A stretch of DNA of 64,000 bases from Shigella phage vb_GEC_SH_GT: the sequence record OR887633. One strand, written 5' to 3'. A program made the translations under genes and the position numbers. Positions 7,839 through 30,820 of the stretch are shown here, in pieces. Position 1 is the stretch's first letter. Every line of letters begins with the position of its first letter. The notes under the pieces are model-generated. The model had not been told where the DNA came from, searched no databases, and worked only from the letters and a program-made list of their open reading frames with translations.

Positions 7839-8761
7839 TTTAGTACCTCAATAGCATTACGTAAACCATTTGCTTTGGCGGTTAAAGTCTTAATAACTTT
7901 AGTATGCTCTTCAATCTGTTTTTCAACTTCAATCAAACGGGCACTGAGATATTCGCGTTCTTCTTTCATAGTATCATTCCCATGATTGTGCTTTGGTGTA
8001 GGTTTAAATTTACTAGGGTCCTTTAACTTAATAACAACTTTAGTTTCAAACAGTGAAAGACCATAATTCGTATTATCATCAAAGGATTCAACTACGTCCA
8101 TTTTAGACAATAACGTACGAAGATTATAAGTCAAAGAACGAATCGTTTTATTATGTTTATTAGCTTCACATGGTTTCATATATGGAAGATTTTTATATAT
8201 TTCATGTGGAGCACAAACAATAATTGACAATTCAAATGGTCCATTCTGTGATGATGGAATGAATTTAGCCGTAACCCAATCTTTTACATTTACATTAATA
8301 GTACGGTCATCGCCATGACAAAACAGTCTACGAGAATGCTTAAAAAGCATATTCACATTATTATTGAATTCATGTGAAAACTCACTAGCAAATTTTTCTT
8401 TACTATTTTTAGAAAACCATTCTTCTAAATAAGTTCTTTTCACGTCATTAATAATATTAAATGTAACAACACTAGCATTTGATACATTAGTCTCAATGTA
8501 GTTTGGATACATAAATTTTTTAACATTATTGACAGCTATCACAGAAGATAGTAATCGGGAACGTTTGAACCACTCTAGCAAAGAACCAAGAGAATGTGAA
8601 TACGCATTTTGTGTATCTTTACAAATATGGTTTTCCCATCCAATATAGTCTAAAAAATCACGAAGAATATTATTGATTACTGCTCTATGTCCTATCTGAT
8701 AATTACGATGTTTAGTAATAAGACTGTCAAAATAATCAATATAATGTTTACGAGTTTTCAT
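7835..8761 (-). CDS. Unknown protein, member 1 of a tandem array
   Basis: 308 aa; begins MKTR; Pro/Lys linker then C-terminal helix [31 protein letters not shown]. Confidence 0.6.
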   Translation of the reverse strand: MKTRKHYIDYFDSLITKHRNYQIGHRAVINNILRDFLDYIGWENHICKDTQNAYSHSLGSLLEWFKRSRLLSSVIAVNNVKKFMYPNYIETNVSNASVVTFNIINDVKRTYLEEWFSKNSKEKFASEFSHEFNNNVNMLFKHSRRLFCHGDDRTINVNVKDWVTAKFIPSSQNGPFELSIIVCAPHEIYKNLPYMKPCEANKHNKTIRSLTYNLRTLLSKMDVVESFDDNTNYGLSLFETKVVIKLKDPSKFKPTPKHNHGNDTMKEEREYLSARLIEVEKQIEEHTKVIKTLTAKANGLRNAIEVLK

Positions 8762-18879: not shown

Positions 18880-19092
18880 TCATTTTTGTCCTGTATTTAC
18901 TTTATGCCGATGCACGGCCTTAACTTTATCAAGGTATTTTTCAAAATTTCGCAATCTAGTATAGTCTGCCGGAGATTGGTTGAGTGATACTTCTCGACGC
19001 AAAGCTGAAATGATATTTCCAACTTCCCTACGAATTTCATCTAATTGAAGAACGGTAAGATTGCGAAGTTGCTTTTCAGTTAATTGTAGCAT
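18880..19092 (-). CDS. Hypothetical protein (rI.-1 position)
   Basis: 70 aa basic ORF. Confidence 0.5.
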
Positions 19093-19134
19093 ATATACCC
19101 CTTTAGTTAGATAAACCTATTTATAACTTTTGCA

Positions 19135-19716
19135 CTAACCGAGCTTTTTAGTTAATTCATTCCAATGTTTTCTACACAAAGAAACATAAATTTCATCACC
19201 AATACAGATTTGATTACCTTCTTTAACTGGTGTTCCATCTTCCATTAATCGAGCTGTCATAATAGCTTTTTTACCACAATGACAAACTGCCTTTAGTTCA
19301 ATAAGTTTATCTGCAATCGCTAAAAGTTCTTTAGAACCTTCAAACAATTTTCCAGCGAAATCAGTCCTTAAGCCATAAGCCATAACAGGAACATTATATG
19401 TATCAACAATTCGACTTAATTGATGCACTTGTTCAGTTTTTAAAAACTGAGCTTCATCTACAAATACACAATGAATATCTTTTTGTGCTTCAGCCCATTT
19501 ATAGAACTCGAAAATATCCATATCATCTGTAATAATATTCGCTTCCTGCTTAATTCCAATGCGAGAAACGACTTCGCAGACAGAATCGCGAGTATCAATA
19601 GCAGGCTTAAGAACTAATACACTCATTCCACGTTCTTTATAATTATGTGCAGCAGTCAAAAGAGAAGCAGATTTTCCAGCATTCATTGCTGCATAAGTAA
19701 AAATTAAACTCGCCAT
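19135..19716 (-). CDS. tk: Thymidine kinase
   Basis: 193 aa; P-loop AAMNAGKS; matches recalled T4 Tk. Confidence 0.9.
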   Translation of the reverse strand: MASLIFTYAAMNAGKSASLLTAAHNYKERGMSVLVLKPAIDTRDSVCEVVSRIGIKQEANIITDDMDIFEFYKWAEAQKDIHCVFVDEAQFLKTEQVHQLSRIVDTYNVPVMAYGLRTDFAGKLFEGSKELLAIADKLIELKAVCHCGKKAIMTARLMEDGTPVKEGNQICIGDEIYVSLCRKHWNELTKKLG

Positions 19717-19717
19717 T

Positions 19718-19906
19718 TTAGTCCTTAGTTAAATTTTCTAAATATGTTTTTAAATCATTTTCAGCTTTATCGATAGATTTTACTAATTCGTAATATGTTT
19801 CGGCATCTCCATATTCAGAAGATATTTCAAAAGACAAATCCTTTTCTAAACTAATAATTTCACCAACTAAAAATAATATTTCGTTCTTTTGTTCGCGAGT
19901 AATCAT
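19718..19906 (-). CDS. Small protein of the MxTREQ paralog family
   Basis: 62 aa; MITREQKNEILFLVGEIISLEKD... Confidence 0.55.
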   Translation of the reverse strand: MITREQKNEILFLVGEIISLEKDLSFEISSEYGDAETYYELVKSIDKAENDLKTYLENLTKD

Positions 19907-20094
19907 AAGGAATTTATATAATTAATGAGTTCTTGTTCTTTATTATCAAATTCTTTGGAAAGTTCTTCATATTCATTTGCGCTAAAAGGACCGCATTCAT
20001 CACAAACTTTTTCTAATTCACTATTTTTATCCATAATTTCGTGGATAAGAGAAAAGAGTTTGTCTTTTTGTTCTTTGCTTAAACTCATAACCAT
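19903..20094 (-). CDS. Small paralog-family protein
   Basis: 63 aa; ...LSKEQKDKLFSLIHEIMDKN... Confidence 0.5.
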   Translation of the reverse strand: MVMSLSKEQKDKLFSLIHEIMDKNSELEKVCDECGPFSANEYEELSKEFDNKEQELINYINSL

Positions 20095-20312
20095 GTCACC
20101 TTTAAGCAGTATTCTTCTACATGCTGTTTACGACCTTTCTTATCAATAAAGGTATATTCAACGAATGTTCCAATGTAGTCTTTATCTACATCATGTGGAC
20201 TATTAATTGGACATTTAGTACGGCAAATGCGTTCCCATTGACGAATAATTACTGCCTTATTCTTTGGGTCATATGGATGTGGATAATGTATATTCATAAT
20301 AATGGTTCCCAA
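20085..20312 (-). CDS. Hypothetical small protein
   Basis: 75 aa ORF. Confidence 0.45.
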   Translation of the reverse strand: MGTIIMNIHYPHPYDPKNKAVIIRQWERICRTKCPINSPHDVDKDYIGTFVEYTFIDKKGRKQHVEEYCLKVTWL

Positions 20313-20761
20313 TCAACAATCACAATTTCTAATTTAGAGGAATACGTATCTAAAATATCTTCAATAATATCCCAGTTCCCTTTACCTATGCCTGCACCAA
20401 TCCTAGGCATATAGATTGTAGGTTTAATCAGTTTATTTTCACCAAACTCATTTAATTCTAACATACAATTCATTAAAGCGGAATACTCAAAATTTGGCCC
20501 TGGTTGAAATTGAGTATAAAGGTTGAAGCAATACGCTTTATGAGTCCTAAAGTATTTTTCATAGACTGAGTAAGAACCGAGTTTAGTTACATCACCCCAT
20601 TCAGTCTGTAATTTATCAGCTTCCAAAATTTTAGGGAAAGCTTTGGTTAATTGACCTGCTACGCCTGAACCCATAGTATGAAAACAATTGCATCCATGCG
20701 CAATATTTTTACCTTCAGCGAAAAGGGCGACAATATCGCCCTTGATATATTTTACAATCAT
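20294..20761 (-). CDS. Macro-domain-like protein (putative ADP-ribose binding/hydrolase)
   Basis: 155 aa; GDIV...NIAHGCNCFHTMGSGVAGQL resembles the macro-domain N-x-x-N...G-x-G-V core. Confidence 0.55.
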   Translation of the reverse strand: MIVKYIKGDIVALFAEGKNIAHGCNCFHTMGSGVAGQLTKAFPKILEADKLQTEWGDVTKLGSYSVYEKYFRTHKAYCFNLYTQFQPGPNFEYSALMNCMLELNEFGENKLIKPTIYMPRIGAGIGKGNWDIIEDILDTYSSKLEIVIVDWEPLL

Positions 20762-21105
20762 CTAGTACTCAATCCTCGATTATAAGAATCTACCAAACGG
20801 TCAACCATTGAATGACAAGCGGCTTTATCTTTCTCCTCCGCAACTGAACATTCTAAGGTATTCCACTTTTTAGCATATCGTTTTAATAATGTATCGTTTT
20901 TGTATCTGCTTGATTTATCTCTTTCTCCGTCTTTATATGCATATATTAATTTCTGTGCAAATTCAGCTTGGCATGCTTTATTTTTCCCACAATAATCTGC
21001 CGCAGTGCGGTTTACATATTCTCTAATTTCAGTATATGATGTATCTGCTGACGCAGAAGCAGAAAATGAAATTAATCCTATACATAAAACCAAAATTTTA
21101 GTCAT
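20758..21105 (-). CDS. Secreted small protein (vs position)
   Basis: 115 aa with N-terminal signal peptide MTKILVLCIGLISFSASASA; four Cys. Confidence 0.5.
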   Translation of the reverse strand: MTKILVLCIGLISFSASASADTSYTEIREYVNRTAADYCGKNKACQAEFAQKLIYAYKDGERDKSSRYKNDTLLKRYAKKWNTLECSVAEEKDKAACHSMVDRLVDSYNRGLSTR

Positions 21106-21643
21106 TTACTATTTCCAAAAGTTTATTATTTTTAAGGTAATTAGCCTTTTCTAGGACTTCAGAAGCATATTTAGAACCAGCTTTAACATTCCATCCCGAA
21201 TTATAAGAGGATATTGCTTTTCTTATATCGCCCTTATGTATATTTAACCAATAAGAAAGTTCAATGTACGCCCAGGAAGCTGAATTGGACCGTTTATTCA
21301 ACATTCTTTTTATTTCAGCATCGGTCATATTATAACCAAGTTCCTTAACTCTTGCTCGCATAGTAGGCAAATAATTTTGGAACATTCCGTAGGCGTGATG
21401 CTTTGGTTTAGATTTTAAATTAACTCCGCCAGAGCTTTCTTGCCATAAAATAGCAGCCATTATATGACCTAATCCGCTCTTGTGGATATTTTTGTGTGTT
21501 TTATATTTTCCATCCTTAGAAAATTGTTCCCCGAATTGATACGCGTAACGCATGTTATCGAGTTGGACATTACTGAAAGTATGCTCGGAGCTATGTGCCA
21601 TCATTGAAATGGCCAATAGACCAGCGAGTAGTGCTTTTCTCAT
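21098..21643 (-). CDS. Secreted lytic-transglycosylase-like protein (SLT domain)
   Basis: Signal peptide MRKALLAGLLAISMMAHS; LWQESSGG...AYGMFQ fits the SLT E-S...G-L-M-Q pattern. Confidence 0.55.
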   Translation of the reverse strand: MRKALLAGLLAISMMAHSSEHTFSNVQLDNMRYAYQFGEQFSKDGKYKTHKNIHKSGLGHIMAAILWQESSGGVNLKSKPKHHAYGMFQNYLPTMRARVKELGYNMTDAEIKRMLNKRSNSASWAYIELSYWLNIHKGDIRKAISSYNSGWNVKAGSKYASEVLEKANYLKNNKLLEIVND

Positions 21644-21650
21644 GCTTACC

Positions 21651-22112
21651 TCATTGAGTTTTAATTACTGCTTTAGAAGCCTTTCCTGGTAAACGACGAC
21701 TGTTAATAATTGCCATCCTACATTGAAGTGACGGGTCTTTGAACTTCTCATTAGGTTTACAAACTGTAAATCCAAGCCAAAGATTTCCATCTGTGATTTC
21801 TAAACGTCCAGGACGATATTCAATTCCATCAATAAAATCCTCGTCAATGTCAGGACGCGGAGGCATACTCAGGAATTCATTAACTTCTAAAACATGGTCT
21901 TTTATTTTATGGAATAATTCAAAAACATATGTCTCATCAATCTCCCGTTGAATTGCACGATCAAGAAGATGCTGAGAATATTTTAGATGAAACGATGAGA
22001 CTCCTGCTGCTTTTGATGCCTCACGAATCTCATTGTTAATTTGACGAAACTCCGACTCAAAGTGACGACGAAGCTTATTTCGACGGATAAAAACTTCTGT
22101 ATTGATAGTCAT
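21651..22112 (-). CDS. regB: Site-specific RNA endonuclease RegB
   Basis: 153 aa; matches recalled T4 RegB; position after the vs block. Confidence 0.8.
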   Translation of the reverse strand: MTINTEVFIRRNKLRRHFESEFRQINNEIREASKAAGVSSFHLKYSQHLLDRAIQREIDETYVFELFHKIKDHVLEVNEFLSMPPRPDIDEDFIDGIEYRPGRLEITDGNLWLGFTVCKPNEKFKDPSLQCRMAIINSRRLPGKASKAVIKTQ

Positions 22113-22140
22113 GTTGTTCTCCTCTTAACTGATAGAAAAA

Positions 22141-22170
22141 TTATACCACAGTCAAGAGGAAAAGTAAACA
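22141..22170 (-). promoter_or_regulatory. T4-type early promoter for regB
   Basis: ttataccacag ... agtaaaca module just upstream of regB. Confidence 0.5.
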
Positions 22171-22171
22171 G

Positions 22172-22492
22172 TTATTCTTTAAATCTAATCAATTTATTCA
22201 TAGACTTTGAAACTTCCGCACGAATCTCATGTAGATTTTTGAGCTGTTCAAGACGCTGCGTATAGTAAGCAATTTCATCTTCTTCGAGACAGTCCTGCGA
22301 ATCTTCTTTAAGATAACGTGCATAGTCCTGGAAAGCTTTACGGACTACTTCCTGGAAGTCATCAAGACTTTGAATTTTCTTAGGAGCAACAGATACACGA
22401 CGAGGGGCAGTATAATACTCATAACCAAACCCTGCGCTTAATTGAGCCATTAGTATTTTTCCTCTGGTTGGAACACAGCACGGCAAGCCCAC
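22172..22492 (-). CDS. Hypothetical protein
   Basis: 106 aa ORF. Confidence 0.5.
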
Positions 22493-30066: not shown

Positions 30067-30142
30067 TGGTCGAGGCAGTAGGGATCGAACCTACGACCCA
30101 GGACTTAGAAGGTCCTTGCTCTTCCTTCTGAGCTATGCCTCG
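30067..30142 (-). tRNA. tRNA-Arg (anticodon UCU)
   Basis: Revcomp folds as a cloverleaf: acceptor CGAGGCA/TGCCTCG, anticodon loop CTTCTAA, T-loop TTCGATC, CCA encoded. Confidence 0.8.
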
Positions 30143-30146
30143 TATT

Positions 30147-30221
30147 TGGCGGACGTGATAGGATTCGAACCTATAACCAATCGCTTAACAGGCGATCGCT
30201 CTGCCATTGAGCTACACATCC
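30147..30221 (-). tRNA. tRNA-Asn (anticodon GUU)
   Basis: Acceptor GGATGTG/CACGTCC, anticodon stem ATCGC/GCGAT, loop CTGTTAA, T-loop TTCGAAT, CCA encoded. Confidence 0.7.
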
Positions 30222-30225
30222 AAAT

Positions 30226-30312
30226 TGGTGGGGAGTGATGGAGTCGAACCACCCGAGTCGCAATGACAATGGATTTACAGTCCACACCGCTACCTCTACG
30301 GGATAACTCCCC
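30226..30312 (-). tRNA. Type-II tRNA, probably tRNA-Tyr (anticodon GUA)
   Basis: Acceptor GGGGAGT/ACTCCCC, anticodon loop CTGTAAA, long variable arm; D-arm pairing irregular. Confidence 0.55.
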
Positions 30313-30321
30313 AAATTAATT

Positions 30322-30396
30322 TGGTGGCCCTGGGTGGAATTGAACCACCATCTGGCGATTATGAGTCGCTTGCTTGAACCTTCCAGCTACAGGGCC
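30322..30396 (-). tRNA. tRNA with CAU anticodon (Met, or Ile if lysidine-modified)
   Basis: Acceptor GGCCCTG/CAGGGCC, anticodon loop CTCATAA, T-loop TTCAATT. Confidence 0.75.
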
Positions 30397-30397
30397 T

Positions 30398-30473
30398 TGG
30401 TGCTGATTGACGGAATCGAACCGCCGACGTCCTCATTACAAGTGAGGTGCTCTACCTACTGAGCTAAATCAGC
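30398..30473 (-). tRNA. tRNA-Thr (anticodon UGU)
   Basis: Acceptor GCTGATT/AATCAGC, anticodon loop CTTGTAA, T-loop TTCGATT. Confidence 0.85.
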
Positions 30474-30478
30474 AAAAC

Positions 30479-30568
30479 TGGCGGAGGCGATAGGATTTGA
30501 ACCTATGAGTCGCCGGAGCGACTGCCGATTTTCAAGACCGGTGCATTAAACCACTCTGCCACGCCTCC
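30479..30568 (-). tRNA. tRNA-Ser (anticodon UGA), type II
   Basis: Acceptor GGAGGCG/CGCCTCC, anticodon loop CTTGAAA, long variable arm, T-loop TTCAAAT. Confidence 0.8.
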
Positions 30569-30570
30569 AG

Positions 30571-30644
30571 TCTCCGCGGCAGGATTTGAACCTGCGACAT
30601 TCTGCTCCCAAAGCAGACGCTCTACCAAACTGAGCTACACGGAG
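30571..30644 (-). tRNA. tRNA-Pro (anticodon UGG), CCA not encoded
   Basis: Acceptor CTCCGTG/CGCGGAG, anticodon loop TTTGGGA, T-loop TTCAAAT. Confidence 0.8.
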
Positions 30645-30654
30645 TAAATTAAAT

Positions 30655-30728
<74 letters not shown>

Positions 30729-30733
30729 AAATT

Positions 30734-30820
30734 TGGTGCGAGAAGTGGGACTCGAACCCACAAGGAAATCATTCCGCAGCATTTTAAGTGCTGTGCCTTT
30801 ACCAATTTGACCATTCTCGC
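30734..30820 (-). tRNA. tRNA-Leu (anticodon UAA), type II
   Basis: Acceptor GCGAGAA/TTCTCGC, anticodon stem CAGCA/TGCTG, loop CTTAAAA, long variable arm. Confidence 0.8.

Follow-up and report, generated by a model that had tools for sequence, protein, structure and literature searches.

Tk.4 (AdfM) of Shigella phage vb_GEC_SH_GT, a stand-alone macrodomain with glutamine at the catalytic lysine position and a probable role against DarTG2

Known erasers of thymidine-linked ADP-ribose

Removal of thymidine-linked ADP-ribose is an activity common to the macrodomains of TARG1, DarG and SCO6735 (PMC9411070). Human TARG1, also termed OARD1 (PDB 4J5R/4J5S), takes thymidine-linked ADP-ribose off DNA (PMC8501950). 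The DarG macrodomain is represented by PDB entries 5M31, 5M3E and 5M3I and by the NCBIfam model NF048014. SCO6735 of Streptomyces coelicolor (PDB 5E3B) hydrolyzes thymidine-ADP-ribose DNA efficiently and is inactivated by either Q85A or Q85E; a water-mediated mechanism without a lysine has been proposed by its authors (PMC9411070).

Phages also encode such proteins. The PhiKZ protein gp104 removes thymidine-linked ADP-ribose in vitro, with reduced activity in the N23A mutant, and was named AdfM independently of the T4 work described next (Cell Reports 2026, PMC13309987). Phages T2 and T4 continue to resist DarTG2 when adfA and adfN are missing, and a further factor was predicted by Johannesman et al. 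(PMC11825919). In November 2025, a HIDEN-SEQ screen of a T4 transposon library on a DarTG2 host returned tk.4 as the single significant gene, and a clean tk.4 deletion made T4 sensitive to DarTG2; the gene was renamed adfM, for anti-DarT factor Macrodomain (bioRxiv 10.1101/2025.11.20.689424). These genetics come from a preprint and were obtained with T4 rather than the present phage, in M9 glucose at 30 C, and hydrolysis of ADP-ribose from DNA by Tk.4 is there called just “likely” (10.1101/2025.11.20.689424). The match of tk.4 orthologues to the A1pp (macro) domain was published in 2006 (PMC1524935), and current GenBank entries label the gene “macro domain-containing protein” or “phosphatase”.

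Phage erasers of nucleic-acid ADP-ribosylation explain the resistance of T-even phages to DarTG systems and are relevant when therapeutic phages are selected for pathogens that carry DarTG. A sequence-only reading of the DNA analyzed here had put forward a phage macro domain as a possible eraser of DarT-type marks. This proposal matches the reported T4 role, in which deletion of tk.4 sensitizes the phage to DarTG2 (10.1101/2025.11.20.689424), and so the letters by themselves led back to a real function. The idea is correct yet not new, because the anti-DarTG2 role of the T4 macrodomain is already in the literature. What may be new here is confined to the Gln-for-Lys active site and to the division between T4-type and PhiKZ-type AdfM, both of which are drawn from sequence comparison.

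The tk.4 gene and the fold of its product

The window, meaning the whole stretch of 64,000 nucleotides from Shigella phage vb_GEC_SH_GT (record OR887633) that was analyzed, carries the tk.4 (adfM) coding sequence on the minus strand at 20294..20761. The frame runs from an ATG start to a TGA stop through 155 codons and encodes a single macro domain. The 155-residue product and the strings that the sequence-only reading had quoted are found in the translation (KGDIVALFAEGKNIAHGCNCFHTMGSGVAGQL); the strand, which that reading did not give, is minus. The Pfam Macro profile PF01661 matches Tk.4 with 28.4 bits over profile positions 2-117 of 118 (gathering cut-off 22), and PHROG 335 matches it with E=6.8e-66. 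These two scores, the many relatives and the near-identity to T4 Tk.4 described below rule out a chance ORF and confirm that the gene is real.

In the T4 reference annotation the gene order is rI, rI.1, tk, tk.1, tk.2, tk.3, tk.4, vs, vs.1, regB, and the ORF studied here corresponds to tk.4. The order regB-vs.1-vs-tk.4-tk.3-tk.2-tk.1-tk found here is that of T4, with tk.4 between vs and tk.3. Tk.4 of the present phage is identical to T4 Tk.4 at 154 of 155 positions (99.4%) and has the same length. The sole change is at position 135, in a variable helix, where this phage has D and T4 has G. The protein is 100% identical to Tk.4 of RB14. A megablast search of positions 19000-22200 against a phage collection gives full-length matches of 98.4-98.6% to T4, RB14, ZCEC14 and numerous further Tequatrovirus records. 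As the T-even phage gene tk.4, the ORF is orthologous and syntenic with tk.4 of T4, and its product is very probably the functional equivalent of T4 AdfM as an anti-DarTG2 factor.

The surrounding genome is less uniform. A 25-kb piece around tk.4 finds its best matches (teqhad, slur03, CM8 and T4_ev240) at ~96% identity and 89-92% coverage, broken into 9-14 pieces, so the window is a mosaic T-even genome. No record of the phage collection matches the window from end to end. The GC content of tk.4 is 34.4%, near the 35.5% of the window, and the long ORFs neighboring it are all on the minus strand.

The product had been read as macro-domain-like, and this reading is borne out by profile, predicted structure and conserved loops alike. 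Besides the match to PF01661 above its threshold, an AlphaFold2 model built from an alignment of 64 homologues predicts a macro fold in which strands alternate with helices (pLDDT 95.1, pTM 0.91). Two Gly-rich loops are present: MGSGVA, in which G33 is invariant in the 64 homologues, and IGAGIGKG, in which G122 and G124 are invariant and G128 is conserved in >=90%. G33, G122 and G124 are unchanged even among homologues down to 34% identity. It is virtually certain that Tk.4 is a macro domain.

The nearest relatives of Tk.4 are the same whether sequence or structure is compared. As a single sequence searched against PDB sequences, Tk.4 matches Bt_1257 best (7e-10), followed by yeast Poa1p, SCO6735, DarG and TARG1. 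When the profile of the 64 homologues is used, the order is Bt_1257 (2e-18), TARG1 (7e-15), Poa1p (2e-14), SCO6735 (4e-14) and Mtb DarG (2e-13). A Foldseek search of the PDB with the model places TARG1 at the top (E 2.2e-9), ahead of Poa1p, Bt_1257, DarG and SCO6735, with TM values of 0.7-0.8. The E-values for TARG1, Poa1p, Bt_1257 and DarG run from 2e-9 to 3e-7, and viral and other macrodomains rank below. At E<=0.001 the search gives 142 PDB entries; the best 50 of the 142 are macrodomains or engineered proteins on a macrodomain scaffold, with TM <=0.81. All of the top 19 Foldseek matches belong to the ALC1-like/TARG1-like class, which holds the nearest neighbors of Tk.4 by sequence and structure: TARG1, DarG, SCO6735, Bt_1257, ALC1 and Poa1p.

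The presence of Poa1p in this list bears on the possibility that Tk.4 acts mainly on small molecules derived from ADP-ribose (ADP-ribose-1''-phosphate or O-acetyl-ADP-ribose, for example), and that its DarTG2 phenotype is secondary. Poa1p, whose PDB entries include mutants at H23, S30 and F152, is the yeast Appr1p phosphatase and resembles Tk.4 in both fold and sequence (E 2.6e-9, TMq 0.80), PHROG 335 is labeled a phosphatase, with source names that include O-acetyl-ADP-ribose deacetylase, and in at least one Acinetobacter phage (H38) the homologue adjoins a nicotinamide phosphoribosyltransferase gene. These labels, however, go back to the former name of the domain, A1pp (PMC1524935), and not to assays of the family, and a pairwise single-sequence alignment puts Ser-Ser of Poa1p opposite T83-Q84 in the NxYTQ motif of Tk.4. 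Moreover, tk.4 was the single T4 gene found specifically on DarTG2 (10.1101/2025.11.20.689424). A primarily small-molecule role is therefore quite unlikely.

A glutamine at the catalytic lysine position

The predicted ADP-ribose pocket of Tk.4 is conserved in the alignment of 64 homologues. The invariant residues are G23, N25, C26, G33, A35, D49, N80, Y82, Q84, P119, I121, G122, G124 and W130. The predicted first ADP-ribose-binding loop, identified from conservation and alignments, consists of residues 22-35 (HGCNCFHTMGSGVA; 20657..20698, minus strand) and contains N25 and a GxG motif. In an alignment with DarG, TARG1, SCO6735 and PhiKZ gp104, N25 falls on N23 of PhiKZ AdfM and on the conserved Asn of DarG. 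The second Gly-rich loop, predicted on the same grounds to bind diphosphate, consists of residues 119-130 (PRIGAGIGKGNW; 20372..20407, minus strand).

Between these loops, residues 80-84 (NLYTQ; 20510..20524, minus strand) place Q84 at the position of the catalytic Lys in HMM, hhalign and MAFFT alignments. HMM alignment of Tk.4 with TARG1 pairs Q84 with the catalytic K84, and G126 with D125. When Tk.4 is aligned by hhalign to Taq and Mtb DarG, NLYTQ lies opposite NFPTK, with Q84 on K80. In the MAFFT alignment, for which the SCO6735 sequence was taken from the PDB via Bt_1257, Q fills the catalytic column in Tk.4, in seven diverse members of its family and in Bt_1257, SCO6735 and ALC1; TARG1, the two DarGs and PhiKZ gp104 have K there. 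A single-sequence phmmer alignment to Bt_1257 is shifted at the Gln motif, and the profile and MAFFT alignments were preferred.

Tk.4 and the DarG macrodomain share a fold class (Foldseek E ~1e-7, TM 0.75-0.80), both have the conserved Asn loop and the Gly loops, and by analogy they would act on the same presumed substrate, thymidine-ADP-ribose on single-stranded DNA, against the same opponent, DarT2. However, the catalytic Lys of DarG (K80 in Taq, motif FPTKKHW) is replaced by Gln, and the C-terminal DarT-binding domain of DarG is missing from Tk.4, which has one domain in 155 residues. The PADLOC DarG model, which has 329 positions, matches Tk.4 with 37.2 bits at positions 2-145, which is the macro part only, and the NCBIfam DarG equivalog matches it over positions 2-147 of 338 with 31.4 bits, compared to a cut-off of 250. 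A tblastn search with one P. aeruginosa DarT2 query, which has limited sensitivity, finds no DarT2 in the 64,000-nt window. Orthology of Tk.4 with DarG is rejected on the change of Lys to Gln, the single domain, the lack of a darT neighbor and the 31.4-bit score.

The comparison with PhiKZ gp104 gives a similar picture. Both are phage-encoded single macrodomains that counter DarTG2, with a first-loop Asn at N23 in gp104 and N25 in Tk.4. In contrast to Tk.4, gp104 bears a strong likeness to DarG (E 9e-25 with Mtb DarG; 132.9 bits to the PADLOC DarG model compared to 37.2) and retains the FPTK lysine where Tk.4 has Gln. BLASTP aligns just 23 residues of the two proteins (E=0.004). This short alignment and the widely separated DarG-model scores speak against treating T4 AdfM and PhiKZ AdfM as equivalent. 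Given also the Lys of gp104, the two AdfM proteins therefore represent separate clades within one fold class. They differ in setting as well, since gp104 enters the phage nucleus and T4 forms none, and in the state of their biochemistry, in vitro enzymology being published for gp104 while hydrolysis by Tk.4 is inferred.

At the catalytic position, Tk.4 resembles SCO6735 and Bt_1257 (PDB 2FG1/2AFC), which are likewise stand-alone proteins of ~150 residues and of the Gln type, and Q85 of SCO6735 is the counterpart of Q84. The three proteins have in common the motifs HxCN and PRIG(A/C)G(I/L)xxGxW, although the identity of Tk.4 to the other two is only 21-28%. The mobile loop that follows the Gln, which in SCO6735 exceeds that of TARG1 and DarG by five residues, is 5-6 residues shorter in Tk.4 than in SCO6735 and Bt_1257 and is without Lys89/Lys93 (TQF---QPGP---NFEY in Tk.4, compared to GQHGIYKDSKGLPPIRY in Bt_1257). 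Lys34 of SCO6735 is Ser32 in Tk.4, and Val25 of SCO6735 (or Ile), which has been proposed to act through its backbone, is the invariant Gly23. Because Lys34, Lys89, the longer loop and Val25, which are reported to matter in SCO6735, are missing, the Gln-type mechanism of SCO6735 may not carry over unchanged to Tk.4. Full membership of the SCO6735/Bt_1257 subclass was rejected, as Tk.4 has only the Gln in common with it, and neither the extended mobile loop nor Lys34 or Lys89.

TARG1, the top structural match, has chains of 139-146 residues compared to 155 in Tk.4. The loop after the catalytic position is equal in length in the two proteins and contains no Lys in Tk.4. The catalytic dyad K84/D125 of TARG1 corresponds to Q84/G126. 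Tk.4 is best described as a stand-alone, single-domain macrodomain, a short-loop, Gln-type member of the ALC1-like/TARG1-like class. With an invariant Gln for Lys and several SCO6735-specific residues missing, T4 AdfM offers a compact natural test case for lysine-free cleavage of the thymidine-ribose bond.

These features fit a mechanism in which Tk.4 would bind the ADP-ribose that host DarT2 puts on thymidine N3 of single-stranded phage DNA and would hydrolyze the base-ribose bond, freeing ADP-ribose and restoring a replicable template. A restored template would in turn let the phage escape the abortive DarTG2 defense. Catalysis would probably proceed as in SCO6735 and not as in DarG, the nucleophilic Lys of DarG and TARG1 being missing, and the invariant Q84, together with N80 and the HGCN25 loop, may position the distal ribose and water. 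As a whole, removal of DarT2 marks by the tk.4/adfM macrodomain is the best explanation of the locus, with a probability of about 0.8. By analogy with the characterized hydrolases, it appears quite likely that Tk.4 hydrolyzes thymidine-linked ADP-ribose from phage single-stranded DNA and that Q84 is a key active-site residue.

The strongest alternative to this explanation is that Tk.4 protects without catalysis, by binding and blocking DarT2 or by shielding ADP-ribosylated DNA, as AdfA and AdfB do. It has been observed that SCO6735 Q85A, DarG K80A and TARG1 K84A all lower DarT activity in vitro, SCO6735 the most, and the authors ascribe the effect of SCO6735 Q85A to interaction-inhibition (PMC9411070). 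In addition, AdfB of phage ICP1 works by direct interaction with DarT (PMC11481870), and hydrolysis by Tk.4 is an inference in the preprint that described its phenotype (10.1101/2025.11.20.689424). Against this, neither the ADP-ribose pocket nor the Gln position varies among the homologues of phages and bacteria, and Tk.4, which covers positions 2-145 of the 329-position DarG model, does not have the domain with which DarG binds DarT. Further evidence comes from the bacterial relatives considered below, and protection without catalysis is on balance improbable, the remaining alternatives being less likely again.

Distribution, origin and expression of tk.4

The tk.4 family is not limited to T-even phages. 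Relatives of tk.4 are detected by tblastn in 2,842 of 50,697 phage records, in T4-like and many other phages, whose hosts include Escherichia, Klebsiella, Salmonella, Pseudomonas, Vibrio, Acinetobacter and Aeromonas. When 1.84 billion cluster representatives (50% identity) are searched with a profile, 17,883 clusters match at E<=1e-3, including 1,168 at E<=1e-30. In the DarTG2-sensitive phage T5, the search with the family profile covered the first 50 kb, which precede another 72 kb, and found no tk.4 homologue there.

Bacteria also carry these genes. When prokaryotes are scanned with one genome for each species, at least 526 bacterial genomes prove to contain stand-alone relatives of tk.4. 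The best 80 of these loci mostly encode proteins of 146-190 residues with the HGCN and NxYTQ motifs. Within 6 kb of these 80 loci, tblastn with a single P. aeruginosa DarT2 query (limited sensitivity) gives no DarT2 match, the best E-value being 3.1. A conserved partner gene was sought by clustering the 1,148 neighboring ORFs of the 80 loci, and was rejected: the clusters reflect lineage-specific housekeeping synteny and include at most 8 loci each. Nor does this clustering of neighbors reveal a toxin partner at the 80 loci. The tk.4 family is large and mostly stand-alone, and is not a toxin-antitoxin module.

These loci bear on protection without catalysis, since none of the 80 (0/80) has a DarT2 match within 6 kb in the single-query search. 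This argues that selection acts on the enzymatic site and not on a DarT-binding surface. The wide distribution also bears on a link to T4’s own protein ADP-ribosylation, which the sequence-only reading had raised. Tk.4 might erase or read the marks that the phage’s own Alt, ModA and ModB leave on host proteins or RNA-protein conjugates, and thereby tune the take-over of the host. T-even phages encode three ADP-ribosyltransferases (PMC9503650), and some proteins, too, are substrates of SCO6735 and TARG1 (PMC9411070). However, homologues are common in bacteria and in many other phage groups (the tk.4 family alone was counted here, Alt and Mod content aside), and no phenotype of this kind has been reported. 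Alt and Mod modify arginine. This is a poor fit to the TARG1-like class, for which, to our knowledge, cleavage of Arg-ADP-ribose has not been described. The link thus finds no support, and this role is very unlikely.

The origin of the T-even version of the gene can be considered from the same data. Because the family is large, stand-alone and of a non-toxin-antitoxin character, it can be argued that T-even phages recruited a stand-alone macrodomain and not an orphaned DarG. The odds are roughly even that T4-type AdfM is an independent recruit from the stand-alone, Gln-type chromosomal macrodomains of bacteria, which works by a lysine-free, SCO6735-like but short-loop mechanism and, in the manner of SCO6735 and TARG1, may also erase other N3-pyrimidine marks (such as uracil-ADP-ribose on RNA) or protein ADP-ribose. 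It would then have a wider range as an eraser than a specialist against DarT2. The name AdfM would then cover two distinct phage solutions, one with Gln in T4 and one with Lys in PhiKZ gp104. Taken with the PhiKZ protein, this suggests that anti-DarT2 macrodomains may have been recruited by phages at least twice.

The position of tk.4 in its gene block is consistent with early expression. Just upstream of regB is a sigma-70-like match, TTTACT-17-TATAAT with TG (22140..22168, minus strand), which is a consensus match only and which a consensus scan identifies as the nearest coding-strand match upstream of tk.4. This site is a candidate early promoter for regB-vs.1-vs-tk.4-tk.3-tk.2-tk.1-tk. Between it and tk.4 there is no terminator-like site on the minus strand, the first hairpin being at 19591, inside tk. 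A middle promoter of the MotA type immediately in front of tk.4 was considered and rejected, there being no MotA-box match between tk.4 and vs.7. In this AT-rich region 24 promoter-like matches are found compared to 24.3 expected from shuffled sequence. Early co-transcription with regB is plausible and no more, because such matches are no commoner than in the shuffles. In the mechanism outlined above, tk.4 would be expressed with an early minus-strand block of regB-vs.1-vs-tk.4-tk.3-tk.

The borders of the gene are tightly joined to its neighbors on the minus strand. The stop codon of vs and the start codon of tk.4 overlap in an ATGA at 20758..20761, and the stop codon of tk.4 overlaps the start codon of tk.3, placed from the sequence and the T4 tk.3 annotation, in a second ATGA at 20294..20297. 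The two overlaps suggest that translation of tk.4 may be coupled to that of both vs and tk.3.

Mosaic kinship with T-even phages

Across positions 8001–33000 of the window, and within them 19000–22200, the DNA has a mosaic relation to known T-even phages. The 3.2-kb region around tk.4, which encodes a single macro domain, is 98.4–98.6% identical to T4, RB14, and ZCEC14, and here RB14-type records carry about 370 bp more. For the surrounding 25 kb, the best matches are teqhad, slur03, CM8, and T4_ev240, which reach only about 96% identity and cover 89–92% of it in 9–14 pieces.

Signals and neighbors of tk.4

Middle promoters were sought across the whole window with a pattern joining a MotA box to a −10 element (TGCTTNA, 11–13 nt, TANNNT). 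This pattern occurs 13 times compared to 4.6 expected, a count reached in none of 100 shuffles, and the excess is consistent with middle promoters of the T4 type. The same scan of the window found no match directly upstream of tk.4.

The tk.4 gene contains a perfect inverted repeat with 8-bp arms, AAGGGCGA(caata)TCGCCCTT, and a T-rich tail follows it (20723–20743, plus strand). A terminator scan scores it as terminator-like on the strand antisense to tk.4, and its DNA encodes the KGDIVAL segment of the Tk.4 protein. The repeat could be due to chance, or it could serve as a stop for antisense transcription in the late direction.

The counterpart of T4 vs.1 lies at 21098–21643 on the minus strand and encodes 181 amino acids. 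Its product has a signal-peptide-like N-terminus, MRKALLAGLLAISMMAHS, and some records label it a transglycosylase SLT domain protein. The gene, which belongs to the same early block as tk.4, would encode a muralytic protein that is secreted or periplasmic.

A tRNA gene cluster

ARAGORN and Rfam place nine tRNA genes in a compact minus-strand cluster at 30067–30820: Arg(tct), Asn(gtt), Tyr(gta), Met/Ile(cat), Thr, Ser, Pro, Gly, and Leu. The Tyr gene scores just over the Rfam cut-off (30.2 bits, threshold 29). T4 has eight tRNA genes (Arg, Ile, Thr, Ser, Pro, Gly, Leu, and Gln). Relative to that set, this phage seems to have Asn and Tyr tRNA genes in addition and to be without Gln.

Unusual Tk.4-family members

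A minority of Tk.4-family macrodomains are joined to extra N- or C-terminal regions. The longer proteins include P0227 (472 aa), P0235 and P0238 (both 302 aa), and P0154 (269 aa), and one bacterial locus of the family has a 528-aa ORF. Such fusion partners might point to other substrates or pathways. In Acinetobacter phage vB_AbaM_B09_Aci01-1, the Tk.4 homologue H38 (86011–86466) adjoins a nicotinamide phosphoribosyltransferase gene, which suggests a connection with NAD salvage in some phages.
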